DNA of 64,000 nucleotides from positions 85,125 through 149,124 of the IMG/VR virus record IMGVR_UViG_3300050120_000210. One strand, written 5' to 3'. This document shows, one piece after another, positions 7,075 through 56,893 of this stretch. Within the stretch, counting starts at the first letter, position 1; each line of letters opens with the position of its first letter. Both the position numbers and the translations under genes were made by a program. Source of the stretch: a virus. A model generated the notes under the pieces. That model saw only the letters and a program-made list of their open reading frames with translations, was not told the origin of the DNA and did no database searches.

Positions 7075-7251
7075 GAATAGTTCCTCCGTAATGTCCTATT
7101 TAGAATAGCTCAGTTTGAGAGTAGCGCAAGGATAAAACAAGCATAGGTCGAGTAGAATATCGCTTTCTGGGTGGAGATAAATACAAGCTCCCACACGCGT
7201 GCTGTTTGGATAAGTAAACCAAACACATCTTTGCAGAAAGTTATTACCCCC

Positions 7252-16200: not shown

Positions 16201-18651
16201 CGGACCACGATGGTCAAGTCTGGAACCACTGCCACGACTTCGACGGCGACTGCCAAATTCGGTAATTCGGCGATGTATTTCGCGGGGGCTACTAGCCAAG
16301 CAACCACAGGCTGCGCGCAGTCAACCGTCAACGCCGCAGGCTTTGGCTTCGGAACCAACGATTTCACTGTTGAATCGTGGGTTAACGTGAGTTCATTCCC
16401 GTCAACTGCGGTCGTGGCTACCTATAACAGCCCCACCACGGCCACTGTGACGAACGTCAATATTTCGTGGATTCTTCAGCTTACCGGGAACGCGACGACT
16501 ATCACGGGGATCGATTTCTACAACCAAGGCGACACCCATATCGCTAACACCGTGGTCTCCGATCTGCGTGTTACTGGTCTGAATATTCCGACCAAGACTT
16601 GGACTCACTTCGCGATCACACGTCAGGGTCAAAACCTGCGGGCCTTCGTGAACGGAACGGTTGTCGGCTCCACAATTATCACGGCCGGATTTAGTTATCC
16701 CACCATCTCGGGCAATACTTTGCAACTCGGCGGCGCCGTGGTTCCGGGCTTTGCTTCGATCTTGGATGGTTATCTCGACGAAGTTCGCATCTCCAACGGT
16801 GTTGCTCGCTATACCGCCAACTTCAGCGTGCAAACGTCGCCGTTCCCGAGCCTGATCGATCCTAGCCCGGTTTGGGCGAACTCGGGGTCGCTGGGTAGTG
16901 CTCTCCACAATAGCCCGATCAGCTTGCAATTGGTGGCGAACACCACCAACGCTGCCCCGGTTACTTACACCGTGCAATCGGGCGCTCTGCCGGGCACTGT
17001 TACGCTCGCCAGCAATGGTCTCGTGTCGGGTGTTACCGGAAATGCAGCTACGGACACGGTGAGCACTTTCACTGTTCGTGCGACAGATACGCTGACGCGT
17101 TTCACCGATCAAACGATGTCGTATACGACCATCGCAAATTCGGACGTGTTCTACAGCAACGTGTCTCTTTTGCTTCACGCGGAAGACACACCGAACGGCA
17201 CAACTATCGCGGATTCCAGCGGTAAGCAGACCTTCACTAAAAACTCGGCAAGTGTTTCGACTGCCAATCAGAAGTTCGGTAATTCTGCACTGTTCTTCAA
17301 TGGTGCAAATACGGCACTAATGGTTTCGACATCCAACCCGCCGGGTATCAGTTTCCCTACCGGAACCGATTTTACTGTCGAAATGTGGTTCAACATGACT
17401 AGCAACGGCGGAAGCAAATCAGCCGTTATGCTCGCGCATGGTCCGAATGCATTCAATCCCGCCAATACGAACAATATTTGGTGCATTCAGATTGATGCAA
17501 CGGCACCCGGTATTCAAGACATCCAGCTATACAATGGCGCTGGTGGAAATGGCGTGTCGGCTAACGTTACCAATCTTCCCTATGGAACATGGCATCACAT
17601 CGCCTTTGCCCGTCAGGGTGGCACACTCCGTGTCTTTGTCAACGGCGTTCTGAATAACACGAACCCGAATACCTTCAACTATGTCGGCAGTGCTGCAACA
17701 GCACTGACCGTGGGTGGATTGAATGTTGAAGCCTTTAGCTTGAACATGAATGGTTACATGGATGAGGTTCGTATCACCAACGGTGTTGCTCGCTATGTCT
17801 CTAATTTCTCGGTCGCCACATCGGCATATCCGAACCTTCAAGACCCGACGCCGATTTTCACGACTAACGCGGTTACTTTCACGGTCGCCAATGCGGTGAA
17901 CGTCAGCAACTCTGTGGTCGCCAATTCGCCTGTCAACCGGTCGCTCACCTATACACTGACCTCCGGTTCTCTAGCGAATGGCACAACGATGTTGAGCAAC
18001 GGTCTGATTACCGGCCAACCGTTCTCGGTGGGCAATTCGGTCTTCACCGTTTCGGCGGCAATCACGGATGCTCCGAACTCGTTCACGCCGACGACTCAGA
18101 CGATCACCTACAACGTGGTCTCGGCCGGTTGGGCAACTGCTCTTGGCGATACTGTGACCCTGCCGTCTTACCTGAGCCCGGTGTATACCGCTACAACTGG
18201 CAACAACTCCAACGGCTTCGGTGTGTTCAGCAACCTTCTTCCGGCAACTGGACAATACTTCATCGACGTTACCTTGGCCAGTGGTCAAGATTCGTCACCG
18301 GCGTCGGTTGGTTTCTTGGGCTTGTCTACAGTGGCAACCGGCTTCAACTTCAATACCTCTGCCAACTATAAGGCTTGGTATTACACGGGAGCTTGGTTCG
18401 GTGATGCAACGACGGTATCGTCTGGTGACTCGTCCAACCTCATCACCGGCACCTATCGTATCGCCATCGACCGCACCAACGGCCTGTTCTACATGCAACG
18501 GACCAGCGGAACACCTTCGACCGTCCGTTCAGCCCACCTTCCGGGCTCCGGCAATCTCTTCCTGATGATGCTTCCGCAAAGCACCTTCAGAGTTCCGGGT
18601 GTGACGATCATCAACGGTGGCATCCAAGCTGGCCACGGTGGTCTCTACTAA
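7252..18651 (+). CDS. giant Ig-like (He_PIG/cadherin-like) repeat + LamG lectin-domain fibre protein, about 3800 aa
   Basis: About 16 tandem ~95 aa repeats (PVW.T..G.L...D..G..Y....G.LP.GL.L...G.ISG), six LamG-like domains (FTVE.W, WxH.A..R, MDEVRIT), SPRY-like C-terminus; TAAATA at 7178; start could be further upstream (7171). Confidence 0.85.
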   Translation: MGIKYDGLKLVWLHQFGGSTTLLTWVSPDEGDVGSFVGGAKAFIPAAVRVINGPRPTFSLSSGSLPTGLSLDTSSGAVSGILNNIVGSYSYTLKAQSGQVSVERTFSANVAVNQAPVWNTPAGSLGSQFDNTPVNLTLDAVDPEAQPVTFALIAGSLPGGLNLSNTGAITGLLSPVTDDTTFFFTLTASDGVLNTQRAFSFTALLDQAPVWSTHGNLGTPIESSAFTFPLVVTGARALTYTVTGGQLPVGLTLDANTGVISGTTPAVALDSTSTFIVSASDGVKATAQTLSIIVKKNLPPVWSSSGTVATDFGGKAVNFNLIAVDPNGSSVTFTLGNGSVLPGDLTLSNTGLISGNLPDVVASTDFSFTAVASDGLLTTPRALKIRTLLNQPPVWDTASGLSPVLEEMAFTRVVSAHDPAGVQAIHYKLASGSLPDGVTLSNNGVISGTPGTVVSDTEYDFNIEANNGVLAASQDFTLIVAKNVAPVWSSNAGLINTVQGLSIYNYNLSGHDGNGTIPVYTLTAGALPDGISLSTSGTLSGTVGNVANATQYDFTVALNDGFNAPVGRSFSIIVTPNALPVWVTNSGTIASAFETAPISVFINAFDPEGAQITYYMVGSSKLPDGVFLNGSTGLISGSLPNVTEDTDFSFNIYADDGTPNNARRAARIFTIHTVFNSAPVFQTPANLGTSIEGRNYSLQLSATGVGNGPMIYTLSSGTLPAGLTLSRSGLISGVLPAAATDTGYTFTVNAFNGIKNATRTFTLTVAHDLPPVWTSNAGTLGSFFGNNAFSIQLASADPNGVGVVYSLANATTLPHGVSLSTGGLVSGSLDIVANNTTYNFTVRSSDGVLSADRSFSLTSLAEVAPNWVTPAGQIAQVFKNTSYSSFLVAADSQHLPITYTVVSGSLPTGLTLNANTGLLAGITANVSINTEYDFTVRASNGTLTSDRAFSFVVQSVATPAWVTPAGSLGSILSGYTGVFSMVATDPQGLSLTYSFISGTLPAGLSFSGGGSATIQKSSPSATVPVTSSDQTYSFTVEVTNGFVPVQRTFSITILKNLPPVWVSPTAGSLGTQNEGTSFTVTLDATDPESQGIFYLVSAGSLPNGFGLNANTGVISGTTGTVSNTTTFNFTIDADDGKQTTSRAFSFTTTFSSAPAWTTASGSLASQLEQTPFSVTVAATAAGQGIHYTVANASILPTGLTLDANTGVISGTLPPVTTDTVDSFDLVATSVVTGKATTRSFSITIINDLPPVWSTAAGLFLDDLAGTSFTKSLLAIDPNGTTVTYTIANGTLPGSVTFNPNAGGGTASLSGTLPTVANNTTYAITVGASDGASQVNRTFSFTSELDVPPVWSTNAGVLANAAPEFSTFSTTVTAVDPNGKGVVYGLANSTLLPTGLSLQANNGLISGTLPAVANALANDTYNFTVRASDGVMTADRNFSIVVKPDAAPVWVTNAGSIGSVLESQTFSTHLVASDPDGDTVTYSLTNGTTMAPGFSLLANGFVSGRAGTTTVDTSYPFDVAASDGHKSTNRSFTLTLQFDTTNLDANSASVTMLMPFEGTPGSNALVDQLGHVITDNGAVISSTQVQFGNTAVFFNGSSSFTTPMLPDFNMLNVGVYTVEFWLFPTENSSTEYLISENALGNDTNVNATYWGIKKSGTSYALNVGPQTLINASSGLISVAGGTVLLNQWQHIAVCKSAAGTKTFLNGVNIGTAAINGTSGNTATNLVVGLGFTGYMDDLRITNAARYSANFTPGKAPAIPVWVTPANTVLVTGSEGNSITNAVALSFTDSSGLGIKNYVTVGALPTGVTLDTSNGTVVGVIPQAVQGGQITLTAQGKDGNNNLTAARNFIIQSNALSAPSDLQVSWRFNKQTSASGFLADIGNSGFGTPTAVGTSFSYVAAPSPHGTDTALQFNGQTAMYMSDTTNLRFLEHSNWTIEMWVWMSDFTAGKSVGTRLLSIGDGANGGNGIFWFTGGTGAIAGIYQNTYSSTFPQPTNGAWNHMALVRNGNQITAYTNGVAGAPGTITGEVPANNFDNLGLAINGHWQASPTATFSVAGTIVRGLNMWSTSKYNTPFTPVWDDFLTPVWANASANIANGLDGNSFNASVLASSFGNTSVTYAVSNAGTMPAGLNLVSNGYVYGTIPTFNANAPATSFSLIATDTNARITPPKTFTVTSLDAKPVWVSNGSLGNNTSNATVSLQLVATDPRGDVPVTYAVANGAIPAGLTLNSNGLITGSLTFQTTDTVSSFTVNAVNHSGKFSISNSLSYTVFTDFDVNFANTMTLLHADGNFTNSGNSTVTWSAGGTATVQNSVVKFGTGAFSTTGVATSWVRSSNLSSLYNLGTRPFTTEFWVNVGGFVNTSGAWQAAILFYGLGNTTAGNQGNGFGVFVTGTSATSGIVSVGAGGWNAAGTAQSFSFGGNITANLNQWYHVAAQRDASNNFSLYWDGQLVGATTAAVTVGPNFTTSYVWNIGTLASVSGFEYPLVGKVDDVRITYDVARYTGNSITVPNKAFPNTGPIAPVFTSPVSLGTSTKLAVVNTTVVATASVANATPITYSLVSGSLPGTATLASNGLISGLAANVVTDTVDTFTIAAADTQTHISNKTFTYTTLVAGDQFFSNVSLLIHGETTANNGVVIDSVGVNTFSTNNAANVSTAASKFGNSAVFFNGANSTTNVMKGLQGPPTWLSNWLSGTDFTLEAWINPTDLPNLTGGVNKTVIMCVANPSTLANYWQWTLSGSNATTITNMDWVTLTPGTVTDFHTTVPAGSIPMNAWTHIALTRANGVVRGFVNGVLLGNSIVNTSAYNGPSSLFFELGGETLTGAPGNFHGYMDEVRITTGTARYTANFTVSANAFPNLLDPSPIWANSGSLGFAYKNSAINVQLAANSPINAVPLTYSLLSGSLPGTATLSNSGLLSGVTSNVSTDTVSTFTLRATDVLAHTTDRTFTYTTVANADVNFGLTSALFHMEDTPNSSSTTDTFTDATGRTTMVKSGTTATTSTATAKFGNSAMYFAGATSQATTGCAQSTVNAAGFGFGTNDFTVESWVNVSSFPSTAVVATYNSPTTATVTNVNISWILQLTGNATTITGIDFYNQGDTHIANTVVSDLRVTGLNIPTKTWTHFAITRQGQNLRAFVNGTVVGSTIITAGFSYPTISGNTLQLGGAVVPGFASILDGYLDEVRISNGVARYTANFSVQTSPFPSLIDPSPVWANSGSLGSALHNSPISLQLVANTTNAAPVTYTVQSGALPGTVTLASNGLVSGVTGNAATDTVSTFTVRATDTLTRFTDQTMSYTTIANSDVFYSNVSLLLHAEDTPNGTTIADSSGKQTFTKNSASVSTANQKFGNSALFFNGANTALMVSTSNPPGISFPTGTDFTVEMWFNMTSNGGSKSAVMLAHGPNAFNPANTNNIWCIQIDATAPGIQDIQLYNGAGGNGVSANVTNLPYGTWHHIAFARQGGTLRVFVNGVLNNTNPNTFNYVGSAATALTVGGLNVEAFSLNMNGYMDEVRITNGVARYVSNFSVATSAYPNLQDPTPIFTTNAVTFTVANAVNVSNSVVANSPVNRSLTYTLTSGSLANGTTMLSNGLITGQPFSVGNSVFTVSAAITDAPNSFTPTTQTITYNVVSAGWATALGDTVTLPSYLSPVYTATTGNNSNGFGVFSNLLPATGQYFIDVTLASGQDSSPASVGFLGLSTVATGFNFNTSANYKAWYYTGAWFGDATTVSSGDSSNLITGTYRIAIDRTNGLFYMQRTSGTPSTVRSAHLPGSGNLFLMMLPQSTFRVPGVTIINGGIQAGHGGLY

Positions 18652-25431: not shown

Positions 25432-26094
25432 CTACGCATCTTCATCCGATGCTTCGATATGTTTTAGTTCATCGTAAAGCATTTCGAGAAAGGAAATGAC
25501 TTTGCACTCGTCGTTTGGGCTCCAAACATCCGGCGCGTCGATTTCCACACCCGTGCCTTTGCTCTTAGCACTCACCAGCCAAAAATACAGCCCCTCGTGT
25601 TCAAGATGCCAAATATCGAAACGAAACTCGCTGGTGAACGTCTGTTGACGTTTTCCGAAAATCTTTGCGAGTGTTTCGCGTTCCGCACCCATGACGGTCA
25701 TCGTGCGGTCGAAACCAAGACGCTTATCTCCGTGGCCCGCGAACCAGTCCCGCACAGCGGGTAGATTGGACGAGTTAAGCGGATGAGCATCTTTGTATCG
25801 TGCACGAGTCATAAACTCGACGTTAGGCAGCACCGACTTTGTGGTCAACCAATTTTGGTGCCGAGTATGATATCGTTTCCCAATTGCCAACGACGGTTGA
25901 CCATGATTTCCAGAACAGCCGGAATCATGACAAGCAATTGGCCAGCCGATGATCCAGACAAATGCAGCCCTTGCAGGTTGGTGCAGTCGGTATAAAAGCG
26001 AGGGGCCGCGCCCGGCGGTGAATATGCAACTGGAACAGTCTTGATCGTTGACCGCGAGGGTCGCGACTGGACTAGTTGCAATATCAGGCGTCAC
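25432..26094 (-). CDS. hypothetical protein (true start possibly 25812)
   Basis: ORF coupled to the thrS stop; only the C-terminal 126 aa look protein-like. Confidence 0.45.
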
Positions 26095-27353
26095 CGACCG
26101 AGAACCAATGCCGCCAAATCTTCTCGCTTGACGATATGTTGACCCTTCTCGCCAAGATTTCGAACTGCCGCCGTTCCGGCTTCTTGTTCTCGTCCGCCAA
26201 CCGCGATGATGTAGGGCACAGCCATGAGACTATGCTCTTTCACCTTCTGAGAAACGTTCTCGTCCCGCACGTCCAAACTGACACGGGCGCCAGAGGCTTC
26301 CAGATCGTCACAGACGGCCTTTGCGTATTCTGCGGCCTCCGGCTTGATCGACATCACAACGGCCTGCACAGGGCTCAGCCAAGCCGGTAGACGGCCATCG
26401 TAGTGTTCCAGCAGGATACCGATGAACCGTTCCATCGATCCGAGGATCGCACGGTGTAGCATGACGGGAGTATGGGCCTTGCCATCTTCGCCGGTGTAAC
26501 GCGCGCCGAGCGCCTGTGGCAGCACGAAGTCGAGTTGCAGGGTGCCGCATTGCCATTCGCGACCCTTGTTGTCCTTGAGGGCGAATTCGAGCTTCGGGCC
26601 ATAGAAGGCGCCCTCGCCCGGATAGACCTCATAGACCAGCCCAGCAGCGGTCACAGCCTGAGCCAAAGCGGCCTCGGCACGATCCCACACTTCGTCCTCG
26701 CCAGCACGGACTTCCGGCCGGGTGGAGAAACCGATCTTCACGTCTTCGAACCCAAAGTCCTTGTAGACGGCAAGCAGCAGTTCGCAGAAAGCCTTGGTCT
26801 CGGCCACGACCTGATCTTCAGCGCAGAAAATATGCGCGTCATCTTGAGTGAATTGACGAACGCGCATGATGCCATGCAGTGACCCGGAAGGTTCGTTGCG
26901 ATGGCAGCAACCAAACTCGGCCATCCGCATCGGAAGCTGGCGATAGCTCACGGTATCGGCGTTGAAAATCTGAACGTGGGCCGGACAGTTCATCGGTTTG
27001 AGCACATGAGTCGCCTTGGCGGCTTCATGCAGATCGCCGGGCACGAAATGTCCGCCGGAGCCGATATCGTCGCGATAGCTGTAGAAATCCCCGGTAGAGA
27101 AAATCTTGTCACCATAGTTCGCCCAGTGTCCCGATTTCTCGAACAGGGATCGGTCGAACAGTTGCGGGGTCTTCACCTCGAAATAGCCACCCGCCTTCAG
27201 CTTGCTGCGGATATAGTTCTCGATGGTGTTGAACAGGGTGAAGCCATTGGCGTGCCAAAACACGCTGCCTGCGGCTTCTTCTTGGATGTGGAAAAGACCA
27301 AGCTCGCGGCCGAGCCGTCGATGGTCGTTGTCAGCAAGCGAATCGTCGCTCAT
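26091..27353 (-). CDS. thrS: threonyl-tRNA synthetase lacking the N-terminal TGS/editing domains
   Basis: [68 protein letters not shown]. Confidence 0.95.
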
Positions 27354-35654: not shown

Positions 35655-35824
35655 TCCTCGTCGGACGCTTCATCGAGCATCTTCTTGGCGTCAGCACGCC
35701 ACTTGTCCCGTTGCTTGGATGACATGGCGCCCCACGACGGAGACAGACCCGGCGGCGCGGCGCGCACATGGCTCTCGTAGAGAGCGATGGCCACGAGTTC
35801 GAGATGAGCAACATCCTTTTTCAC
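35636..35824 (-). CDS. small hypothetical protein
   Basis: GTGA coupling to the LysRS stop. Confidence 0.5.
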   Translation of the reverse strand: MKKDVAHLELVAIALYESHVRAAPPGLSPSWGAMSSKQRDKWRADAKKMLDEASDEEWERDF

Positions 35825-37389
35825 AGGACGCTCCGCAAGAGTTCGATGGATCGCTCACGACCATAGGCGGCGATAAACGAGCCGAAGCGCGGCCCTTGTT
35901 CGTCGCCGAAATAGACCTCGTAGATGGCCTTGAACCAGTCGCGCAGCGGCTCGAACATGAACGACTTGCCAATCTCGTAGACATGCCACTGGTAGCCTTC
36001 ACCATCCAGTTCATCACTGAGGTTTTCGAGGGTGTCAGCCAGTTCGGAGAACGCTCGTGCTTCATACTCGGTCGGGGGGCGGCGGGGCTTCCGCTCAACA
36101 TGCTCACGCACGTAGGCGATGACACCGGGAACAAGGCTCCCAATGAATGCGCGGTCGCCAACACTCAGCGACTTGTATTGGTCGAGGTAGTTCATCAGTG
36201 TTTCGGCATCCTGCGCGCCCGAAACGGTCGCGAGGTTGATGAGCAGGCTATAGCTCACGTCCGCGTTGTAGGGCGGGGGCGAGCCTTCATGAACGTGCCA
36301 CACGGGCGAGTCGAGGCGAGCCTTCCCTTCGAGCGCCGGGAAGGCGGTAAGAGCCTTGAGATATTCATCGGTCACACGAGGGATCACCGAAGGCGTAAAC
36401 GCCTTCGCCGAGCGCGGCGACATGAACATGAACTGTGCCAGTGGGCCGGACGCACTATAGCGGTTCCACGTTTCCGTGGTCATGCCGTTGCCCAGCGACT
36501 TCGAAAGCTTGCGGCCTTCGTCGTCAAGGAACAGTTCATAGAAATAGGTCAACGGCGCCTTGCGGCCGACCGCCTTGCAGATACGGGTACTGAGCACGGC
36601 GCTGTCGATCAAATCCTTGCCGTGCATCTCGTAATCGATGTTGAACGCCATCCAGCGCATCGCCCAGTCAACCTTCCATTGAAGCTTGACCTGACCACCA
36701 AAGATGCTGGTCTGATGAATCGAACCGTCTTCGTCGGTGAACGTGATTTCGTAATCGCCGAGAAGACACACGTTCGCATTGTCCAACACCTTGCCGGTGT
36801 TGGGGCTGAGCGGCATGAACGGCGAATAGGTTTCGGCACGATTGCCGCCTTGACCACCGAGCGACGGCAGCATGATCTTCATGACCGCGTCATAGTGATC
36901 GTAGATGAGCTTCAGAGCTTCATTGAATCCACCACCGGCATAAATCTCCGTGGACGACACGAACTCGTAGCCCACTTCCATGCGGTCCAAGAAATGTCGA
37001 AGAGCGATGTTGTTTCGGGCGGCGAAACTCGAAAACTCACCGAACGGATCACACACACGCGTCAACGGAAGACCGATGTCTTCGCTCATTGATGCGGGCA
37101 TACCGTCCGGTACGCGGCGGAAGCCGTCGTAATCATCCGAGAAAACGATCAGACGAGTTTCGACCTTACCTTCGGTCAGTTCCTCGAACGCGCAGCGGAC
37201 CATGTTCGTGCGAACGACTTCACCGAACGTGCCGATGTGCGGGGCGCCAGAAGGACCGAAGCCAGTCTGAAAAGTCACGAGGGGTTGCCCTTCCACACGC
37301 TGCAACAGCGCGCGGGCTTGTTCGAACGGCCATGACTTGGCTTCGAGGGCACTCACGTCGAGACTCCTTTTAGGCGGCGGCCAATTCAC
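35821..37389 (-). CDS. lysS: class I lysyl-tRNA synthetase
   Basis: WPFEQA, TGFGPSGAPHIGTFGEV, KLQWKVDWAMRW, YE.HGKDL, KLSKS.GN, GPRFGSF. Confidence 0.95.
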   Translation of the reverse strand: MNWPPPKRSLDVSALEAKSWPFEQARALLQRVEGQPLVTFQTGFGPSGAPHIGTFGEVVRTNMVRCAFEELTEGKVETRLIVFSDDYDGFRRVPDGMPASMSEDIGLPLTRVCDPFGEFSSFAARNNIALRHFLDRMEVGYEFVSSTEIYAGGGFNEALKLIYDHYDAVMKIMLPSLGGQGGNRAETYSPFMPLSPNTGKVLDNANVCLLGDYEITFTDEDGSIHQTSIFGGQVKLQWKVDWAMRWMAFNIDYEMHGKDLIDSAVLSTRICKAVGRKAPLTYFYELFLDDEGRKLSKSLGNGMTTETWNRYSASGPLAQFMFMSPRSAKAFTPSVIPRVTDEYLKALTAFPALEGKARLDSPVWHVHEGSPPPYNADVSYSLLINLATVSGAQDAETLMNYLDQYKSLSVGDRAFIGSLVPGVIAYVREHVERKPRRPPTEYEARAFSELADTLENLSDELDGEGYQWHVYEIGKSFMFEPLRDWFKAIYEVYFGDEQGPRFGSFIAAYGRERSIELLRSVL

Positions 37390-38780: not shown

Positions 38781-39305
38781 CTATTTCTTGGTGGTGATTA
38801 CCGTGGTCACAACTGCCGCCGGAGCGACAGGCGCGCTGGGAACGACAACTGTTGGTTTGACTACCGGGCACCAGATAGACTTGGTGCCGCCGTCATATGG
38901 CTTGGCGAACCCGCCATCAACCATGAGCTTTCCGTAGTCTCGGCCATCCTCAAGCGTAACCGTTCCGAGCAGGCGGCCGTATTTGTCATGCTTGGTGGTG
39001 TCGTAGTGCACAACGACCGTCGAACCCAAACGAATGACCGTCTTTGCGTAGGCGGACGCTGCTTCTCCGAGTTTCACTTCGCATAGGCTCTTGCCGGGTG
39101 GCATACGCTTTTCGGGGGTATCGATACCGTCGATCCTCACATCATCGGGATTGTAAGGCACGGGCCAACCGGCGATCACAACCTTGATGGTGTCGCCGTC
39201 GATAACCTTGATGACTTTGGCTTGGTAGTCGATTGTCGCTGCGGCGGCGGGAGCAACTCCCAATAGATTGAAAGCGGCCAGCAGGATAAGTGCATACTTT
39301 TTCAT
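38781..39305 (-). CDS. secreted thermonuclease (SNase family)
   Basis: Signal peptide; VIDGDTI, RIDGIDTPE, DKYGRLL; TAAATA 4 nt before ATG. Confidence 0.9.
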   Translation of the reverse strand: MKKYALILLAAFNLLGVAPAAAATIDYQAKVIKVIDGDTIKVVIAGWPVPYNPDDVRIDGIDTPEKRMPPGKSLCEVKLGEAASAYAKTVIRLGSTVVVHYDTTKHDKYGRLLGTVTLEDGRDYGKLMVDGGFAKPYDGGTKSIWCPVVKPTVVVPSAPVAPAAVVTTVITTKK

Positions 39306-40520: not shown

Positions 40521-40593
40521 GGGCCATCACTTGTCAGGAATGAACCTTCAAAGTAGCCCGTGCACGGACCTATCTGCAATATTTTCGTAAACC

Positions 40594-40636
40594 AAAATAG
40601 GCCCACCGGGTGGGCACATGGCGTGACCGGTGGGCC
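40594..40636 (-). terminator. Rho-independent terminator
   Basis: ggcccaccgg...ccggtgggcc followed by tatttt on the - strand. Confidence 0.7.
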
Positions 40637-40639
40637 GTA

Positions 40640-40740
40640 ATGGCTTCGGACGGGCTGCCATCAACCGTTCAGGAGCCCGGCGCCGAACATCCTGACTCAG
40701 GGGTATGTCCTAAAAGGGCAGTGACCGTTCTGATCCTTAC
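40640..40740 (-). ncRNA. possible small rod-shaped RNA
   Basis: Nested inverted repeats with a central bubble, bracketed by two - strand terminators. Confidence 0.35.
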
Positions 40741-40750
40741 CCTAGACACG

Positions 40751-40781
40751 AAAAAGCCGCCCCGGATTTGCCGGAGCGGCT
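40751..40781 (-). terminator. terminator of the GOLLD-like transcript
   Basis: agccgctccgg-caaat-ccggggcggct-tttt. Confidence 0.8.
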
Positions 40782-40832
40782 GGGAGTCCCGCGCTAGTCG
40801 GGATATGAGAACTGCCGGAGCAGTTTGATGTT

Positions 40833-41980
40833 AAAGCCGTGAGACTACAGGCTTAATGACTGGCCTTCCGAGATTATAGCCCACTTGCGATGGACCTTCC
40901 CCGATCATCCACCCTCTGCTCTTGCGAGTCAAAAGGTAACCAGCCGATGCCGCCTTTTCCCTATCGAAGCCCGAAGGCATAGGCGAGTGGCTTATCTCGC
41001 GTCGTAGTGTGTCCTCGGCGGTTCCTTCTCCGTTGACCATCGCTGGCCATTCAGGGTTGCAGCCCCTACGAAAACCTTCCCACCAACGTCCGGTTGCCTT
41101 GCGAGCTTCCGACCGTCTCGGTTCCAAATCGCCACCCGAAGATGACGACCCAGCCGAGAATTAGGCATCTTGTTACACACTACCGGGGCAGAACTTTGCG
41201 TTTTTCTAAGACAGTTGGAATTGAACCAACGACCTCATCCTATGCAGGGATGCGCTCTACCAGAGTGAGCTATATCGCAATCCACCAAGACGTGCTGCCC
41301 CAGTTGCTTCACCAGCCTTTCAGCCGACAAAATACAACACGCCTCATCCCTTTCATCCGGCTAAGACTACTCAGGTGTCCTTTTGGACCTAGTGACGTTT
41401 TCACGCCCCAAGACCCTGAAGACTGCCACCCGCCCTAAGCTGCGAAGCCTCGGACCTGATGACTACCCGTTAACTCTCGACCATGGACGTGCTTTGCATG
41501 TCTCGGTGCAGGACGCAAACCCCGCTTGGACCGACCTGCTTTCCCCACCGGCGAACCGACAAGGGCATCGAGCCTAGTCCTATCCCCTCTCAGGGACCAA
41601 AACGCACATCGTCCGATCTATCTCCTATCCCGAAGGTAGAAGACCCTCTTTAGGAGGGTAGTTCGGGCCTCTTTGGATGGACTACAGTTGCCTGTAGGGA
41701 CGGTATGTGGACCTTCCGCCCTTATCCCACCTCGCGGCGGGTTATCCGATTATACTGGCGCCAAATCGCCAGTTCTCAACACCCGTCCTATCGGTCGAAC
41801 GAACTACCCCGCACATCGACCGAAGCCGACGTGCAAAGTGATCCAGTAGGATCGAAGAGACGTTCCGCACGCCGCCCGAAGGCGACTTAACCCGACCGAA
41901 GCCGAGAGGCACGGAGTGCCGAAACTTGTGTGCTAGGAGCGGGTTTTCCCGCTCTCAGCGAAATTTTTTGGTCTGTGACC
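40833..41980 (-). ncRNA. GOLLD-like giant ornate RNA, about 1.15 kb
   Basis: No credible ORF; dense GNRA/UUCG hairpins on the - strand; segments GUGUUGUAUU...GAAAGG...GGGGCAGCAC, GCAAAGUUCUGCC and 3' AAGCCUGUAGUCUCACGGCUUU resemble GOLLD as I recall it; own promoter and terminator. Confidence 0.8.
41206..41279 (-). tRNA. degenerate tRNA-like element (anticodon position GCA) embedded in the GOLLD-like RNA
   Basis: Intact D arm (GCTC..GAGC), anticodon arm catcc-ctGCAta-ggatg, T arm gttgg-TTCAATT-ccaac; weak acceptor, no CCA, U37. Confidence 0.7.
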
Positions 41981-41988
41981 GAAACACC

Positions 41989-42017
41989 AACCTAACAACT
42001 CGCCATTTTCTGGTCAA
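41989..42017 (-). promoter_or_regulatory. sigma70-type promoter for the GOLLD-like RNA
   Basis: TTGACC-N17-TAGGTT. Confidence 0.75.
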
Positions 42018-42481
42018 CTACTTTTTACGATCTCTCGTAATTATTTTCGTTCACCAGATGGTGGAAGCCGTTGGGAGAGCGCCGCTGCCCCAGCCGTGAT
42101 TTGGAAAGTAGCGACCCCTTTCGGAAGACGCAATATCCTTTTTCGCAATTTCGTGACGAAGCCTGTGGATAACTCGCAAACGAAACAACGAGGGGTCGTC
42201 AAGCCGTTTGGCCCGGCATTCTCGTTGAGCCAGCAGCCTCGTATCTTGATGACTGAGAGCAAACTCCCGCCTGTGGGAATGGCGTCCCCGGCACGTTCCC
42301 GAGGCCCTCCACTCAAAACCGCACAAGGCTCCAAAGCCCGCCGGTCCACAGCCCGTGTCATACCACGGCGCCACTCGTCCAGTTCTGATTAGCAGACAAC
42401 AAGTTACCAGTCAATCTGCGCGAAAACTCCAATTTTGAGTTTCGATAAATACTCGAAGCCTAATTGGATCATCTCCCTTCA

Positions 42482-45400
42482 ATGACACTGCGTCTCACAA
42501 CTCTGAATCTATCAGGATCGCTCACAGTGGGTAGGGATACCAATCCCGCTATCATGTGGGTTGCTCCGATGAACAAGGTTCTGGGTGCATTCAACGAAGG
42601 CGACGAGATCGAAACCGTCTTCAAGGCGACCGGCAAGAACCTCACCGCGCCCATCACCTATGAGCTTCACGTTGGTTCGCTGCCGGACGGCATCAGCTTT
42701 GATGAGACCAGCGGTTTGATGAGCGGTATTTTCACCGATCAAGTTGGCCTGTTCGATATCATCATTCGCGCGCAGAGTGGCGGAACGTTCCTCGATCATC
42801 CGTTCCGGCTCATCACCGGGCCGCATCCGTCGCCTGTCTGGATCACGCCTTCAGAGATTCTTGATTTTGGAAACGTAAACGAAACGGCGAACACCGCAGT
42901 TGAAGCCGTCGATCCCTATGAGCTTCCGGTTCAATATTCTGTGGTCGGCGGGCAGCTTCCGAGCGGGGTGTTCTTGGACCCCAACACCGGCGCCATCACT
43001 GGCACCTACCCGAACCTCGACGATGACCGCGAATACGATTTCACGTTGGCCGCGTCGAACGGCGACACCGCAGTGTTCCGTGACTTCAGCATCTATGTCG
43101 CAGCCGTCCCGCCTGAGTTCGCTTCGATTTGGGTCACTCCGGCCGGTTCGATTGGCTCTGGTTACGAACTCTCGTTCTTTGAGAGCACCGTGCTGGCCAT
43201 CGACCCGCGAGACGATCACATCACTTACGTGCGTGTGGCTGGCAACATTCCGCCGGGTCTGCAACTGGACGCGAACACCGGCCTGATGTCTGGCACGCTC
43301 GACGCGCAGCCGGACGACACCGAGTTCAAGATGATCTTGGGGGCGCGAAACAGCGTCTACACCACGAAGCGTCTGTTCCTCATCACCGTCAAACACGACG
43401 TTGCCCCGAGCTTCGAGATTCCGGGCGGGGACACGGGTCATCCGTTCCCCATCGGTCAGTTCATCGAAGGTTTCTCGATGAGATTCACACCGAACGTCAC
43501 GTCGAATCCTGAACTCCCGATCAGCTACACGGCGGTCGGTCTGCCTGATAACGTTGGCATCGACGTGAACAACGGCATGGTTTCGTCCGATTCCTTGCCG
43601 CTGGTGCCAGAGCCGCGCAACAGCGACGAGACCGTTCAGTTCTCGATCACCGCATCCGATGGTTTGAAGTCAGCTTCGCATCAATTCGTTTTCGTGATCC
43701 TGCGCGACTTGCCGCCGGTCTGGCAGCCGGTCGGCAACAGCCTCGGCCAAGATTTCGGAGGCACGGTGTTTGCTTCTCCGTTGCCGCTCGCCGTTGATGT
43801 TTACGCCCGTCCCGTTGTCTACACGCTATCCGATCAAACTCCGCTTCCCGATGGTCTGACGTTCGACCCGGATCAAGGCGAAATCAGCGGCAACCTTCCG
43901 CCCACACCCGATGACGATATCGACATTCCGCTGACGATCACTGCGGTCAGCGGTGTCAATCCGGCGATCAAGGATTGGACGATTACGGCATGGCACAACA
44001 TCCCGGCTATCTGGGATACTGACGCTGGCTCGCTCGGCATCATCATCGAGAACACCAACTCATCGGTAAGCGTCGCCGCGCACGATTTCCACGGTGAGCA
44101 GGCCGTGACCTACGCGATGGCGAACGCGACAGTTCTGCCGCCGGGTCTCACGTTGATCGCGAACTCAGGCGCCATCGTCGGCACGACGCAGAGCATTTCC
44201 GATCCCAATCTGGAAACGACGGTCTTCACCATCGAAGCGTCGTTCAACGGTCTGCTGCCGACCACTCGCGATTTCTCGATCAGCGTGCAAAAGAACTATC
44301 CGCCCGTGTGGGACACCCCGGCCGGAAGCCTGCTCTCTGTCCTCGCCCAGCAAGATTTCGGCGTTTCCGTCGTCGGTCACGATCCGAACGGCTCGCCGTT
44401 GATCTATGCGATTATCGACACGAACATTCCTGATATTCCCGACATCGTCACGACGCCCACTGACGTGACGGGTCGATTCCCGCCGACAACCGTCGATCAA
44501 ACATTTTTCTACAAAGTTTCGATCAGCGATGGCGTGAACCTGCCTATCGAACGAGACTTCACGCTGACTTCGTTGGCCAACTTGCCGCCGGTTTGGGTGA
44601 CGAACGCGGGTACTATTCTCGACGCATTCGAACATACTGACGTGAGCATTCAACTCGATGCGTTCGACCCAGAGGGTGCGGATATCGAGTTCTACATCAC
44701 GCCCAACACCAACGATATCTACAAAGAAGGCAACACTGTCTACCTTACGATGTCAAACACCGGCCTCGTCACCGGCACCCTTCCGCACGTCGATTCAGAC
44801 ACGACCATTTCGTTCACCGCAATTGCGTGGGATCAAACCGGCGAGCGCGGTAACAATCGCTATCTGGCAACGAGCCAGAGTTTCGACATCGTCGTGCGGT
44901 TCAACACCCCGCCGACGTGGAATACGGCCGCCGATATTGAAGGTCTTGAACGCACTGCGTTCTCCTTGACGTTCAGCGCCAGCGGCGCGGGTAATCTTCC
45001 GCAAATCGTTTACACGCTGAAGAGTGGATCGTTCCCCACAGGTCTGACCATGGATGCCAACGGCGTGCTGAGTGGTATCCTTCCGGCCGTAAGCTCGGAC
45101 CAAGATTTCATCTTCACGATGACCGCCGACAACGGCATCAAGCAGTCCGACCGAACCTTCACATTCACGGTGGTTGAGAATGTGCCCCCGGTTTGGGACA
45201 CCCCCGCCGGAGAGTTCATCAGTCATCTTGGACAGATTCCGTTCAGCGCCCAAATCATCGGCCACGATGACAACTCGCCGCTTGGTAACCCGGTGACGTA
45301 TACCCTCACCGATGTGGGTAATGTGCCTGTCACCGTCTCCTTCACCGCCGCCAATCCGATCACCGCCAACTCGAACATCACCGGCGTGATGAGCGGGCAT

Positions 45401-48400
45401 TTGCCGCTCGTGGAGAACTCGGACGCGCTTTACACCTTCACCGCCGCACTGAACGATGGTCTTGCCCCGCCGGTCAGCCGCACGTTCACAATTCGCAATC
45501 TGGCCGACCGTGATCCCCTGTGGGGAACACCCGCTGGCTCGATTGGCGTCGGCACTGAAAACAAGCCCTTCACGTTCACGCTTGGTGCAACGGACCCCGA
45601 AGCAAACACGGTTGTGTATGCTCTCGCCAATGGCACCAATTTGCCGGATGGACTTACGCTTTCGAGCAGCGGCTTCATCAGCGGCACTATGCCGCCCGCA
45701 GCATCCGATACCGATTATCCGTTCTCGGTTTTCGCGAGTGATGGAACACACGAATCGTTCCGCGATTTCACCGTCACGGTGCAGCATGATTTCCCGCCTG
45801 TCTGGGTTACTCCCGCAGGTAGCTTGGGCACGATCCTTGGTGGTTTCAGTTCAAGTTTCCGCATCGAAGCGACCGATCAAAACCCGCACGACACGGTCAC
45901 TTACAGCGTGGTCAGTGGCTCATTGCCGCCCGGCCTTGCGCTACTAGACACCGGTTTCATCAACGGCGCCATGGACACTATCCCTGCCGATGAAGACTAT
46001 AACTTCACGGCACAAGCGACAGACGGCACGAACCCGATCACACGGGCGTTCGCGATCTCTGGTGTGCGAAACCAGCCTCCGGTGTTTGTGCCGGGTGGCA
46101 GCCGCCTTGCTCGTCAAAAAGAACAGACGAACTTCACCGCGTTCATCGACGTGTTCGATCCTGACGGTGGTGATATTGCCGAACGCAAAGTCACCGGCTT
46201 GCCTGATGGCCTGACCTTCAACACCAGCACATTCAACATCGAAGGTGTGCTGCCTGCGGTCACCGAAGACAAAACGTATTCGTTCGATTATCTGGCGAAT
46301 GACGGCATTGTCGCGAACACGCAGACTTACACCATCGACGTGCTGTTTAGCTCTCCACCGGTCTTCCAAGGGTCTTCTACGCTCAATCGAGCGGTTGAGG
46401 GTCAAATCTACGCTGGCGACCAGATCACGGCCCTCTCAAATGGGTCCACGGTATTCTATTCGGTGTCTGGTGGCGAAATGCCGGACGGCATCAACTTGGC
46501 GTCCAACGGACAGGTTACCGGCGTGGCGCCGGGTATAGACACCGACACCAACTTCATCTTTGACGTGACCGCATCGACTGGCATCAAGTCCAGCGTTCGC
46601 ACCTACACGCTATCGGTCATCAAAAACCAGCCGCCTGTGTGGGACAGCAATGCAACGATCTCGCCGTTCGCGCAAGAAGGCCAGCACATCTCCTACTCGT
46701 TGGTCGCTCACGACATCAACGGGCAGAACCTCACTTACACCTTCCAGAGCGGTGCGATCCCTTCCGGTTGGATTTACAACGCTACCAGCAATGGCGTGAC
46801 CATTTCGGGGACCGGTCAAGACCTGACCTCTCTGGCCAACGACGCGGTCTATACCTTCACGATTGGCGCGTCGAACGGCTTCATCCGTACTGATCGTCTG
46901 TTTACGATTGTCGTGCATTACAATTCGCCGCCGATTTGGGGTGGTAATTCCGTCGTCGCGAACGTGGTCGAACAGACTGCGGTGGTGACCAGCGTGCACG
47001 CCACCGATCCCGAAGGCAACGCGGTGACTTACGCGGCCAACACCGCGACCTTTGGTTTCCCGTCGTGGCTGACGCTCAATGCGAACAGCGGGCAACTGAG
47101 CGGCACCGTGCCGCCGGTGCTCTCCAATTCGTCTGTGCCGTTTACGATTGCAGCGTCGGACGGCAATCGTTCGGCCAATCGCGACTTCTCGATCAACATC
47201 ATCCACAACGTCTCGAAGGTCGATCCCTTCGCAAATGCCGTGTCGCTCATCATGCACATGGAAAACTTCAACGACTTCGCGACGCTTCCTCCGCGCACAT
47301 TCTCGGTGACTTCTCCGGCCGCGTTGTCTTCCGCGCAGTTCCTCTTCGGGAGCAAGAGCCTGTTCGCCAATGGCGGCGCCATCACTACCCCATCTACGAC
47401 GGACACGTTGCTGGCGAACTCTGAATGGACTGTGGAGTTCTGGGCTTTCCCGACTTCCACGGGAACACAGCGCGTGTTGAACAGCAACGGACCTACCAAT
47501 TTCTGGAACGTGAACATCGCTTCTGGAAATTGGGTGTTCAACGCAACGAATAGCGGCGGGACGATCATCGGTGGTGGGCTCACTCTTGGCGCCATCGTCT
47601 TGAATCAGTGGCAGCACGTCGCGATCACCCGAGGCACGGATGGTGTCATTCGTGGGTTCGTCAATGGTGTCGTCGCTGGGGCCACGATCTCTGGCGCCGT
47701 CAGCAGCAGCGGCGGTAGCGGCTTGTTCTCGATTGGCGGCGATAGCAATGACAGTGTGTTCTCGACCGTCTTCATGGACGAGGTTCGTATCACGCAGAAG
47801 CAACGCTACACCGCGACCTTCACGCCCGTCACAAACCCGTTCCCGAATCCGCCTCTGTGGTTGACCGCCAACGCAACACTGATCGCTAGCGGCCCGGAAA
47901 ACAGTGTCGTGACAGCCCCAACCCCGGTGGTTGCTTACGACAACGACAACACTGGCTCAATGTCGTCATATACGATCACTTCGACAACGCCATTCTCCTA
48001 TGGCGTTGCGGGGAACACCGGCGTCTTGAACGGTTTCTTCCCGACGCTAGTGACTGACGCGAACTTCCCGATTGTGACTGTGGCCCGTGATGGCAACGGC
48101 AACTGGACCGCACCGCGCACTTTCTTCGCCAAGTCCAATGCCGCCACCGCCGCCAACATGGTCATGTCGTGGCGCTTCAACAAAGACATGACTTCGAGCG
48201 ACTTCTCGCTATCGACTGGCAACGCGGTTGTTGGACAACCGGGCATCAGCGGAGGCACGGCGACTTATGCTCAGGCGCCCGCTCCGCATGGCACTGAAAC
48301 AGCCATGTGGACAGGGAACACCGGCACCGGGCTCTCGTGGGATACAGGTGTTGGTCATTTCAACTTCCTGTCCGGCTCGTTCACGCTTGAAATGTGGGTC

Positions 48401-48841
48401 TATATGGCTGGCGGTTATCCGCAAAATGTGGGCGGCGGAAACCGGGCGCTATTCATCATCACGCCGTCAGCCTTCAACAGCAATTTCCGACTGTTCCGAT
48501 ATGAGTCGTCGCCATCTCCGACCGGAAACATGGCTATGACCTTCATGGACATCAACCGACCGGCCGGGTGCCCAACGGGTCAGGATTTGGTGCCAAATGC
48601 ATGGCAGCACGTCGCGTTCACCAGAAACGCAACCACCAGCACGAACACGCTTTGGTTGAATGGTGTTGCCGGGCCGAGCACAACGACATCAAGTCCCGCA
48701 ATCGGGACATTCGATAACTGCAACCTGCTGATAAACCCGGCGGCGTCCACAGCTTATGTGAACGTCTTCTATCACTCGATCATTTTCTGGAACGTGCTGA
48801 AATACACGAGCACGTTCACCCCGGTCTGGCCGGGCTACTAA
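42482..48841 (+). CDS. second giant Ig-repeat + LamG fibre protein, about 2120 aa, paralog of 7252..18651
   Basis: About 16 He_PIG-like repeats, LamG, Ig, SWRFNK..APxPHGT LamG-like module; TAAATA at 42446. Confidence 0.85.
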   Translation: MTLRLTTLNLSGSLTVGRDTNPAIMWVAPMNKVLGAFNEGDEIETVFKATGKNLTAPITYELHVGSLPDGISFDETSGLMSGIFTDQVGLFDIIIRAQSGGTFLDHPFRLITGPHPSPVWITPSEILDFGNVNETANTAVEAVDPYELPVQYSVVGGQLPSGVFLDPNTGAITGTYPNLDDDREYDFTLAASNGDTAVFRDFSIYVAAVPPEFASIWVTPAGSIGSGYELSFFESTVLAIDPRDDHITYVRVAGNIPPGLQLDANTGLMSGTLDAQPDDTEFKMILGARNSVYTTKRLFLITVKHDVAPSFEIPGGDTGHPFPIGQFIEGFSMRFTPNVTSNPELPISYTAVGLPDNVGIDVNNGMVSSDSLPLVPEPRNSDETVQFSITASDGLKSASHQFVFVILRDLPPVWQPVGNSLGQDFGGTVFASPLPLAVDVYARPVVYTLSDQTPLPDGLTFDPDQGEISGNLPPTPDDDIDIPLTITAVSGVNPAIKDWTITAWHNIPAIWDTDAGSLGIIIENTNSSVSVAAHDFHGEQAVTYAMANATVLPPGLTLIANSGAIVGTTQSISDPNLETTVFTIEASFNGLLPTTRDFSISVQKNYPPVWDTPAGSLLSVLAQQDFGVSVVGHDPNGSPLIYAIIDTNIPDIPDIVTTPTDVTGRFPPTTVDQTFFYKVSISDGVNLPIERDFTLTSLANLPPVWVTNAGTILDAFEHTDVSIQLDAFDPEGADIEFYITPNTNDIYKEGNTVYLTMSNTGLVTGTLPHVDSDTTISFTAIAWDQTGERGNNRYLATSQSFDIVVRFNTPPTWNTAADIEGLERTAFSLTFSASGAGNLPQIVYTLKSGSFPTGLTMDANGVLSGILPAVSSDQDFIFTMTADNGIKQSDRTFTFTVVENVPPVWDTPAGEFISHLGQIPFSAQIIGHDDNSPLGNPVTYTLTDVGNVPVTVSFTAANPITANSNITGVMSGHLPLVENSDALYTFTAALNDGLAPPVSRTFTIRNLADRDPLWGTPAGSIGVGTENKPFTFTLGATDPEANTVVYALANGTNLPDGLTLSSSGFISGTMPPAASDTDYPFSVFASDGTHESFRDFTVTVQHDFPPVWVTPAGSLGTILGGFSSSFRIEATDQNPHDTVTYSVVSGSLPPGLALLDTGFINGAMDTIPADEDYNFTAQATDGTNPITRAFAISGVRNQPPVFVPGGSRLARQKEQTNFTAFIDVFDPDGGDIAERKVTGLPDGLTFNTSTFNIEGVLPAVTEDKTYSFDYLANDGIVANTQTYTIDVLFSSPPVFQGSSTLNRAVEGQIYAGDQITALSNGSTVFYSVSGGEMPDGINLASNGQVTGVAPGIDTDTNFIFDVTASTGIKSSVRTYTLSVIKNQPPVWDSNATISPFAQEGQHISYSLVAHDINGQNLTYTFQSGAIPSGWIYNATSNGVTISGTGQDLTSLANDAVYTFTIGASNGFIRTDRLFTIVVHYNSPPIWGGNSVVANVVEQTAVVTSVHATDPEGNAVTYAANTATFGFPSWLTLNANSGQLSGTVPPVLSNSSVPFTIAASDGNRSANRDFSINIIHNVSKVDPFANAVSLIMHMENFNDFATLPPRTFSVTSPAALSSAQFLFGSKSLFANGGAITTPSTTDTLLANSEWTVEFWAFPTSTGTQRVLNSNGPTNFWNVNIASGNWVFNATNSGGTIIGGGLTLGAIVLNQWQHVAITRGTDGVIRGFVNGVVAGATISGAVSSSGGSGLFSIGGDSNDSVFSTVFMDEVRITQKQRYTATFTPVTNPFPNPPLWLTANATLIASGPENSVVTAPTPVVAYDNDNTGSMSSYTITSTTPFSYGVAGNTGVLNGFFPTLVTDANFPIVTVARDGNGNWTAPRTFFAKSNAATAANMVMSWRFNKDMTSSDFSLSTGNAVVGQPGISGGTATYAQAPAPHGTETAMWTGNTGTGLSWDTGVGHFNFLSGSFTLEMWVYMAGGYPQNVGGGNRALFIITPSAFNSNFRLFRYESSPSPTGNMAMTFMDINRPAGCPTGQDLVPNAWQHVAFTRNATTSTNTLWLNGVAGPSTTTSSPAIGTFDNCNLLINPAASTAYVNVFYHSIIFWNVLKYTSTFTPVWPGY

Positions 48842-55735: not shown

Positions 55736-56893
55736 ATGGACCTGACCACGATCATCACCCCCGAACTGGCCCGCCTGCGCGGCGCCTTTGTCGCGGCTGG
55801 GTTTGATCTGCGTCTGGTCGGTGGTGTGGTTCGCGATCTGCTGCGCGACATCGACCCCAAAGATATCGACCTGTGCACGGACGCCAACCCCGACGAGCAG
55901 ATCGCGATCTACAAAGCCGGTGGCTTCAGCTACCACGAAACGGGTCTGCAACACGGCACCCTGACCGTGGTTCTGGATCACGAGCCCTACGAGATCACGA
56001 GCCTGCGAACCGAAAGCGACCACGATGGTCGCCATGCCGTCGTGGATTATACCCGCGATTGGCTGGCCGATCTGGGTCGCCGGGACCTGACCTTCAACGC
56101 CATGTCCCTGACATTCGATGGCGAACTGTTCGACCCGTTCGGCGGCGTCAAAGACCTACACAACGGCATCGTTCGCTTTGTCGGCAATCCCGATGATCGA
56201 ATGCAGGAAGACTATCTGCGTATCCTGCGTTGGCTGCGGTTCCATGGGCGGATCGCTCCGAACAGTCCGCTGGATAAAGCCACGGTCGAAGCGGCCATGC
56301 GGAACGCCAAAGGTCTGATCGGTATCTCCCGTGAACGAGTTTGGATGGAAATGTCCAAGATCGTCGTGGGGCGGGCGGCGCCCGCTCTGGTGGACTCCAT
56401 GTATGACATGGAACTGGCCGGGCCGATGGGACTGCCTGCGGGTCACGTTGAGCGAATGCTGGACATTCAGGGCGTCACTGCCAATCCAGTCACCGTCATG
56501 GCCGCACTGGTCATGGTGGACGATCCCGGCATCGACGCACACACCGTTTCCAAGCTGGCTACGGACTGGAAGTGGAGTGCGGCCGAGCGCGACCTGATCG
56601 TGTTTCTGGCCAAGAACTTCGATGTCAACGGTTCAGACTACATGTGGCTGCTGGCCCACGACGGCTACCCGCGCGAGTGGGTTGTTGAACTGGCCCGGCT
56701 GGGTGGATCAAAGGTCGTCGGCGATGGTCTGATGACCATGGACATCCCTGTGTTCCCGGTCGCCGGACAAGACCTGATCGACGCAGGTATGGCGCCGGGC
56801 AAGGAAATGGGTGTGGCTCTGAAGAACATGAAAGTTCGGTGGGCCACCAGCCGTTACACCCTGACCAAGGACGATCTGCTGGCCAATGGGTAA
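55736..56893 (+). CDS. cca: class II tRNA nucleotidyltransferase (CCA-adding enzyme)
   Basis: LVGGVVRD...DIDL, G..HGT, RRDLTFNAM, EDYLRILR, ISRER. Confidence 0.9.
   Translation: MDLTTIITPELARLRGAFVAAGFDLRLVGGVVRDLLRDIDPKDIDLCTDANPDEQIAIYKAGGFSYHETGLQHGTLTVVLDHEPYEITSLRTESDHDGRHAVVDYTRDWLADLGRRDLTFNAMSLTFDGELFDPFGGVKDLHNGIVRFVGNPDDRMQEDYLRILRWLRFHGRIAPNSPLDKATVEAAMRNAKGLIGISRERVWMEMSKIVVGRAAPALVDSMYDMELAGPMGLPAGHVERMLDIQGVTANPVTVMAALVMVDDPGIDAHTVSKLATDWKWSAAERDLIVFLAKNFDVNGSDYMWLLAHDGYPREWVVELARLGGSKVVGDGLMTMDIPVFPVAGQDLIDAGMAPGKEMGVALKNMKVRWATSRYTLTKDDLLANG

Follow-up and report, generated by a model that had tools for sequence, protein, structure and literature searches.

Few natural RNAs are known to assemble into closed cages without the help of protein, and GOLLD RNAs are among them. 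They are encoded by phages or prophages, usually in the neighbourhood of tRNA genes, and their transcription characteristically increases while the phage grows lytically. Env-38 GOLLD, which comes from a marine metagenome and is 833 nucleotides (nt) long, forms a 14-mer cage (PDB 9MEE; Kretsch et al. 2025, PMC12286853), and its residues 1–420 have been termed the 5' region (PMC12286853). An RNA-only cage, 5' caps and an interior linker have been described for GOLLD (PMC12286853; PMC12990946), with a reduced 5' domain leading to a 12-mer and the consensus 5' domain to a 14-mer (PMC12990946). tRNAs occur occasionally in the linker (PMC12286853; PMC12990946), and copies from phage phiCbK were included in the published GOLLD alignment (PMC12286853). 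Here we describe a locus on the minus strand of the window, by which we mean the whole 64,000-nt stretch analysed, i.e., the last 64 kb of the 149-kb IMG/VR virus record IMGVR_UViG_3300050120_000210. Judged from its sequence, this locus is a gene for the GOLLD RNA of an uncultured giant phage; our literature search found no paper coupling GOLLD with jumbo or mega phages.

GOLLD identity of the locus

An initial annotation of this DNA, made from the letters alone, had described an RNA of about 1150 nt whose 3' ~500 nt resemble GOLLD. The resemblance is borne out by the Rfam GOLLD model (RF02032), which matches 41345..40835 on the minus strand over positions 1–416 of its 416 positions, with a score of 143.4 bits (E 1.7e-39). 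A search of the phage's own genome with the same model returned the same place (E 2.7e-41), and no match to ROOL, another large RNA, was found in the window with Rfam. The 3' domain of the window is the longest of the 26 that we measured (511 nt; median 468, range 461–511), and two of its hairpins exceed the model consensus by about 20 nt each (24 versus 5 nt and 27 versus 4 nt). The dense packing with tetraloop hairpins, also pointed out in the initial annotation, is real: counting stems of at least 3 base pairs (bp), the RNA has six UUCG-capped and seven GNRA-capped hairpins, compared with 0.28 and 2.6 in mononucleotide shuffles.

GOLLD loci were gathered through a neighbouring protein, from cultured phages, through conserved DNA patterns in IMG/VR, and from JGI metagenomes and bacterial genomes. 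A search with the 126-residue protein adjoining GOLLD gave no matches. Five copies related to that of the window score 159.3 (L003), 159.3 (L156), 160.9 (L158), 163.6 (L157) and 129.6 bits (L002) with RF02032.

The canonical 5' domain

The 5' part of the RNA, about 650 nt, had been suggested as a possible expanded or novel set of domains. This holds for the first 209 nt (41981..41773), which are extra, but not for the 427 nt that follow (41772..41346). The latter are an ordinary GOLLD 5' domain, called the core below; a homologous core and covarying helices are common to 29 other GOLLD loci. The Rfam GOLLD model spans the 3' half only, with helices P14–P27, and the less conserved but structured 5' domain, with P1–P13, lies outside it. 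In practice, a long stretch left unmatched 5' of a GOLLD hit is for the most part an ordinary 5' domain and not a new RNA.

With an nhmmer profile of the core, a homologous core was found upstream of the 3' domain in the 45 GOLLD loci examined, mostly in full length. Measured by the boundary of the hidden Markov model (HMM), the core of the window comprises 426 nt and is the longest among 32 distinct loci (median 400, range 362–426). We aligned 30 sequences (the window and 29 GOLLD loci) and obtained 71 consensus pairs, with 96% of the cells paired, compared with 37–50% in controls with slid partners. Compensatory changes are seen in 51 of these pairs, and none of 500 shuffles was as good. In the env-38 construct, the first hairpin of the model lies about 415 nt in, and the core of the window is of comparable length.

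The alignment also contains a covarying long-range helix of 5 bp, formed by columns 80–84 and 568–572 (~41697..41693 and 41289..41285 in the window). It joins a conserved loop of the 5' domain (CCACA, CCUAC or CCCAU) to GUGG or GUAGG just after the first hairpin of the Rfam model and thus ties the 5' and 3' halves together at the start of the linker. The helix is present in 30 of 30 sequences; position 82:570 is U-A in 22 and C-G in 8 of them, and position 80:572 is C-G in 26, U-A in 3 and G-C in 1.

A clade-specific 5' extension

Only 41981..41773 is outside the published P1–P27 architecture. This extension has a minimum free energy of −106.3 kcal/mol, compared with −80.4 ± 4.8 kcal/mol for shuffles (z −5.39). 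The clade sample has four sequences in full length and two that are cut. A consensus fold derived from the former is composed of two hairpins, E1 and E2, and a closing helix, E3; it has 27 pairs, with 89.7% of the cells paired against 32–51% when slid, and 10 of the 27 pairs have changed on both sides. The corresponding leaders of the relatives are ~205 nt (L156), ~150 nt (L158) and 272 nt (L002) long. Among 158 loci (1.28 Mb), the extension HMM matches only the window, L156, L002 and L158, and assignment to a known family was rejected, as Rfam has no match at E ≤ 10. A coding reading was rejected as well. There is no open reading frame (ORF) of more than 64 residues in 41346–41981 on either strand, and 10 of the 10 insertions and deletions that separate the extension, the 5' core and the first 3'-domain hairpin from those of L156 (83% identical) are not multiples of three; since all of them break the reading frame, the region is non-coding.

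The extension could be a leader that is cleaved off, or an independent element that serves processing or stability, in which case the mature GOLLD would be of ordinary size. Such a role would suit a module that is self-contained and closed by its own helix, and in which little of the sequence is conserved outside the 5' hairpins and the closing helix. Moreover, several clades have strong promoters 10–44 nt before the core, so that the core evidently folds without an extension. However, the end of E3 is separated from the first core hairpin by 1 nt in the window and by 0–1 nt in all four sequences, suggesting a fixed, possibly stacked junction and not a spacer. Also, neither a terminator (terminator scan) nor a conserved promoter (comparison of the four contigs) lies between extension and core. 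A candidate internal promoter, TTGAGA-N19-TATAAT (~41780..41750), is common only to the window and L156; it was rejected, as its position coincides with a conserved RNA hairpin and as L002 and L158 lack it. We regard a cleaved or independent element as unlikely, and survival of the extension in the mature RNA as somewhat favoured.

5' leaders in other GOLLD clades

Near-consensus promoters (TTGACA-N17-TACAAT) are found in other clades 10–44 nt, 140–190 nt or, in L140, ~280 nt before the core. The long leaders of the AT-rich clades contain a module closed by a long helix, in a layout loosely similar to that of the window and with unrelated sequence. A common origin of the extension with these 140–280-nt leaders is not supported by sequence, as the extension HMM matches its own clade only. 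In three AT-rich marine loci (L137, L138 and L139), leaders of 150–190 nt lie between a TTGACA-N17-TAYAAT promoter and the core. These are closed by a long UAUAAGAA/UUCUUAUA helix and contain a T-arm-like GGCAGGUUCGAAUCCUGU, so that they seem to incorporate a fragment or mimic of a tRNA.

The clade-specific junction pattern retrieved only known viral contigs and three more metagenome contigs, with none in bacterial genomes, and a search with the promoter pattern matched only the L002 contig. The 14-base pattern GAGAGGGGATAGGA gave 104 loci, mostly random, of which only L012 and a known relative are related. L012 (IMGVR_UViG_3300004789_000053) has a 21-nt exact match to the 5'-core motif UCCCUGAGAGGGGAUAGGACU of the window at positions 2456–2476. 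The match lies at the end of a 2.5-kb AT-rich contig, which stops 26 nt later; the sequence upstream is unrelated, and the match is followed by a hairpin and a GAAGAC motif, as in the window. L012 might carry a GOLLD whose 5' domain is different or shorter.

Predicted total lengths of ~1.15 kb were found in L002 and L140 too. The core and the 3' domain of the window exceed all others of the set in length, and its leader is among the longest. A GOLLD RNA of more than a kilobase is real but not unique, and represents a clade-specific enlargement in a family with a plastic 5' end.

Promoter, terminator and transcript limits

The initial annotation had placed the RNA, as an autonomous transcription unit, between a TTGACC-N17-TAGGTT promoter and an intrinsic terminator. 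Both elements are present on the minus strand; the strand of the promoter had not been given. The promoter is kept in four contigs (the window, L156, L002 and L158) with equal spacing and divergent spacers. The shared pattern consists of GTTGACSAG, fifteen unconserved bases and TARRWT, together with an upstream A-tract, and the −10 element reads TAGGTT, TAGGAT, TAAGTT or TAGATT across the four contigs. Identity to the RNA of the window is 83% over the whole RNA for L156 and about 70% for L002. Upstream of the promoter, conservation is restricted to L156, and the DNA of L002 and L158 is unrelated; a conserved promoter next to diverged upstream DNA is the pattern expected of a real promoter that starts a unit.

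The terminator lies 54 nt beyond the position at which the initial annotation had begun the region. L003 also has a terminator at this place, whose stem differs and whose TTTTTCGTGT tail is identical, and in L156 the 3' half of the terminator and the tail are conserved. With a predicted transcription start near 41981, the RNA would measure 1147 nt to the GOLLD 3' end at 40835, in agreement with the span of ~1150 nt proposed at first, and about 1235 nt if the U-tract of the terminator is included. At the level of sequence, an autonomous unit is supported, because the promoter is conserved in four contigs and the upstream DNA only with the closest relative, and because terminators are found in L003 and L156. 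We consider it very probable that the locus is a GOLLD and that it is transcribed as one unit.

A longer transcript could start at an upstream promoter-like motif, TTGACT-N17-TAATCA (~42413..42385, minus strand), and run through 42059–42381 into GOLLD. The motif is also conserved in L156, and between it and the GOLLD promoter intrinsic terminators were not seen. Nevertheless, L156 alone shares the upstream region; in L002 and L158 the GOLLD promoter is kept but is preceded by unrelated sequence. The fold of the region (z −0.57) is no better than that of shuffles. A longer transcript is improbable. It would be compatible with a GOLLD unit that has its own promoter, and tandem promoters are possible. 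The stretch of ~330 nt upstream of the GOLLD promoter (42059–42413, minus strand) carries no gene.

The tRNA-shaped insert in the linker

Rfam and ARAGORN both place a tRNA-Cys-like element (41280..41205), which the initial annotation had not mentioned, inside the RNA. Its acceptor stem includes a C-U mismatch along with two G-U pairs, a U is located 3' of the anticodon, and CCA is not encoded. The sequences UUGCG and CGCAA on either side of the element can pair with each other. A tRNA-like element is present at the same linker position, 58–67 nt after the start of the 3' domain, in 35 of the 45 loci listed (ARAGORN); three of the 35 have abnormal anticodon loops. The anticodons are those for Lys, Asn, Arg, Thr, Pro, Gln, Ser, Glu, Gly and Cys, an 'AUG' His, and UCA. 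All three GOLLD copies from bacterial genomes (Thalassospira, Pseudaminobacter and a gammaproteobacterial metagenome-assembled genome) have such an element in the linker. In L156 and L003 the T-loop has drifted; Rfam scores both at 41 bits, and ARAGORN calls no tRNA in L156. A tRNA-shaped linker insert is thus the rule in the GOLLD subfamily examined, as opposed to the 'sometimes' of the literature, and this prevalence, in a linker that would face the lumen, is one of the few clues to the function of GOLLD.

It is highly improbable that the unit chiefly makes tRNA-Cys, with the GOLLD flanks as a precursor or storage scaffold from which RNase P and 3' processing release the tRNA: the element does score 52 bits as a tRNA, with intact D, anticodon and T arms, is the sole tRNA-Cys in the 149-kb record, has counterparts with many anticodons at the same site of related GOLLDs and shares the window with a CCA-adding-enzyme-like gene, and 'inhibited storage' of embedded tRNAs has been proposed (PMC12990946), but the C-U mismatch and two G-U pairs of the acceptor stem, the U 3' of the anticodon, a G after the acceptor stem, the drifted T-loops of the closest relatives L156 and L003 and flanks that can lock the element into the host RNA all speak against release, and the 1-kb covarying GOLLD body would be left unexplained.

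Proposed working of the RNA

In our proposal, a sigma-70-like promoter of host type would start the RNA near 41981 on the minus strand and the intrinsic terminator would end it at ~40750, yielding a primary transcript of ~1.23 kb with a structured body (41981..40835) of 1147 nt. The RNA would have four modules: the 209-nt extension, the 427-nt 5' domain, the linker with its tRNA-Cys-shaped insert, and the 3' domain. By analogy with the env-38 and Streptococcus agalactiae GOLLD structures, copies of the RNA may self-assemble without protein into a closed cage, in which the 3' domains would form the ring and the 5' domains the two caps. As in the solved GOLLD structures, the linker, and hence the tRNA-like insert, would face the interior. 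The extension would add about one quarter to the mass of each subunit at the cap, and might decorate the cap or alter the packing of subunits. The most likely role would be a function at the infection stage that is tied to tRNA or translation; this reading comes from context, namely the tRNA genes of the phage, the genes for two aminoacyl-tRNA synthetases and for a CCA-adding-enzyme-like protein within the window, and published ribosome pull-downs.

Because published structures link the composition of the 5' domain to the number of subunits, a natural form enlarged by a discrete module of 209 nt lends itself to testing how assembly depends on the cap domain. That the extension changes the particle is doubtful. 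It is also rather unlikely, if conceivable, that the extension is a retained, functional fifth module that gives the largest subunit so far of any GOLLD-type cage and either alters its geometry or subunit number or offers a docking surface at the cap. If this were true, each chain would have ~380 kDa and a 14-mer ~5.3 MDa by our arithmetic, compared with ~3.8 MDa for env-38, and the extension together with the near-universal, lumen-facing tRNA-shaped insert would point to a cage built around a tRNA-like cargo.

Several points weigh against a single, enlarged GOLLD transcript as drawn here. The score of 143.4 bits is 6.6 bits below the curated gathering score of 150, and at gathering thresholds Rfam reports only a tRNA in the locus; GOLLD appears with E-value thresholds. 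The gathering score is an operational cut-off and not a structural feature, and four of the five related copies exceed it (L002 being the exception). The shortfall is presumably due to the 76-nt tRNA-like insert and the two enlarged hairpins, and we do not take it as excluding GOLLD membership. The −10 element TAGGTT is weak, agreeing with the Escherichia coli consensus at only three of six bases, which is why a generic promoter scan missed the promoter. The start site, the continuity of the transcript and the survival of the extension and the tRNA-like insert in the mature RNA are predictions. The first nucleotide of env-38 was mapped onto 41772 by inspection and length only, and an nhmmer search of the 116 nt at the start of env-38, as given in the supplement of the paper, with the 5'-core profile gave no match. 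The covariation of the extension comes from only four sequences, from which its structure was derived too; we regard it as supportive, not decisive. Finally, other clades with promoters 10–44 nt before the core indicate that the extension is dispensable for the GOLLD class.

Genome context

The source record is 26% complete according to CheckV, so that the whole genome would have about half a megabase, and a relative of the GOLLD locus is carried by a 578-kb viral contig. We ascribe the locus to a phage because the window ends an IMG/VR virus record and because of this relative. The GOLLD gene is thus phage-encoded and close to tRNA genes: the window has three phage tRNA genes, with tRNA-Asn 1.4 kb downstream of GOLLD and tRNA-Val elsewhere (ARAGORN), and most related GOLLD loci are placed after tRNA arrays. 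According to the ORF list, 40521–42463 contains no convincing gene. The genes for the synthetases and for the CCA-adding-enzyme-like and nuclease-like proteins (Table 1) are all within about 15 kb of GOLLD.

The window also contains two very long ORFs on the plus strand, 7171–18651 (3826 residues) and 42464–48841 (2125 residues). The latter lies on the strand opposite to GOLLD and starts ~450 nt from the GOLLD promoter. Its product has twelve He_PIG immunoglobulin-like repeats and a laminin-G/concanavalin-like domain and is therefore probably a surface or fibre protein.

Table 1. Coordinates of the elements of the GOLLD locus and of neighbouring genes in the window
Feature	Position	Strand	Description
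Sigma-70-type promoter	41989..42017	-	−35 TTGACC 42017..42012, N17 spacer, −10 TAGGTT 41994..41989; A-rich tract just upstream
Clade-specific 5' extension	41773..41981	-	209 nt; E1, E2, closing helix E3
Hairpin E1	41980..41970	-	Very 5' end; consensus fold of four sequences
Hairpin E2	41959..41932	-	Consensus fold of four sequences
Helix E3	41924..41915 with 41783..41774	-	10 bp, closing; the set of hairpins inside it is variable and has three with UUCG caps in the window
Canonical GOLLD 5' domain (core)	41346..41772	-	427 nt; opens with hairpin CUGGCG-AUUUGG-CGCCAG (41772..41755)
GOLLD conserved 3' domain plus linker	40835..41345	-	511 nt, RF02032 match
tRNA-Cys(GCA)-like element	41205..41280	-	Rfam tRNA 52 bits; ARAGORN tRNA-Cys GCA; in the unpaired linker of the model
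Intrinsic terminator	40747..40781 (stem-loop 40781..40755)	-	11-bp stem, 9 G-C pairs, 5-nt loop, TTTTT U-tract
Staphylococcal-nuclease-like protein	38781-39305	-	
Class I lysyl-tRNA synthetase	35821-37389	-	PF01921, E 9e-100
Class II aminoacyl-tRNA synthetase	26091-27353	-	With HGTP anticodon-binding domain
Poly(A) polymerase/CCA-adding-enzyme head-domain protein	55736-56893	+	

Comparison with known systems

Env-38 and the RNA of the window share one plan, with a 5' domain of ~415 nt in env-38, a hairpin, a variable linker and a conserved 3' domain. In both, the 5' domain opens with a GGC-rich hairpin of similar kind, and a GNRA hairpin comes next. They differ in that the RNA of the window has 209 extra nt 5' of the first hairpin, bringing the total to 1147 nt compared with 833 nt, and the similarity of the 5' domains is too low for nhmmer over the first 116 nt. 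In env-38 the linker has a disordered stretch of 42 nt (497–538) for which no tRNA has been reported, whereas the linker of the window holds the 76-nt tRNA-like insert.

The best matches in the phage collection are Caulobacter phage phiCbK and its relatives and Erythrobacter phage vB_EliS-L02, which are cultured phages with hosts among the Alphaproteobacteria. They are 71–73% identical to the window over the junction of the 5' core and the 3' domain and over the linker tRNA. Both phiCbK and vB_EliS-L02 match the full GOLLD model (165.3 and 141.9 bits, respectively), contain a tRNA-like element embedded in the match and have a 5' core homologous to that of the window, but neither has an extension of the window type. 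In phiCbK, at most ~500 nt lie between a transfer-messenger RNA gene on the opposite strand and the 3' domain, and vB_EliS-L02 has another leader of ~120 nt after a TTGACA-N17-TATACA motif. The anticodons in their linkers are those for Gly, Lys or Glu, compared with Cys in the window.

ROOL RNA resembles GOLLD in being large, ornate, phage-borne and tRNA-associated and in forming an RNA-only cage; its sequence and fold are unrelated. GOLLD of S. agalactiae (700 nt, PDB 9L0R, 12-mer) belongs to the same family and shows that the number of subunits in the cage is set by the composition of the 5' domain (PMC12990946). Compared by description, its 5' domain is reduced (without P1, P9 and P11a–c), whereas that of the window is enlarged.

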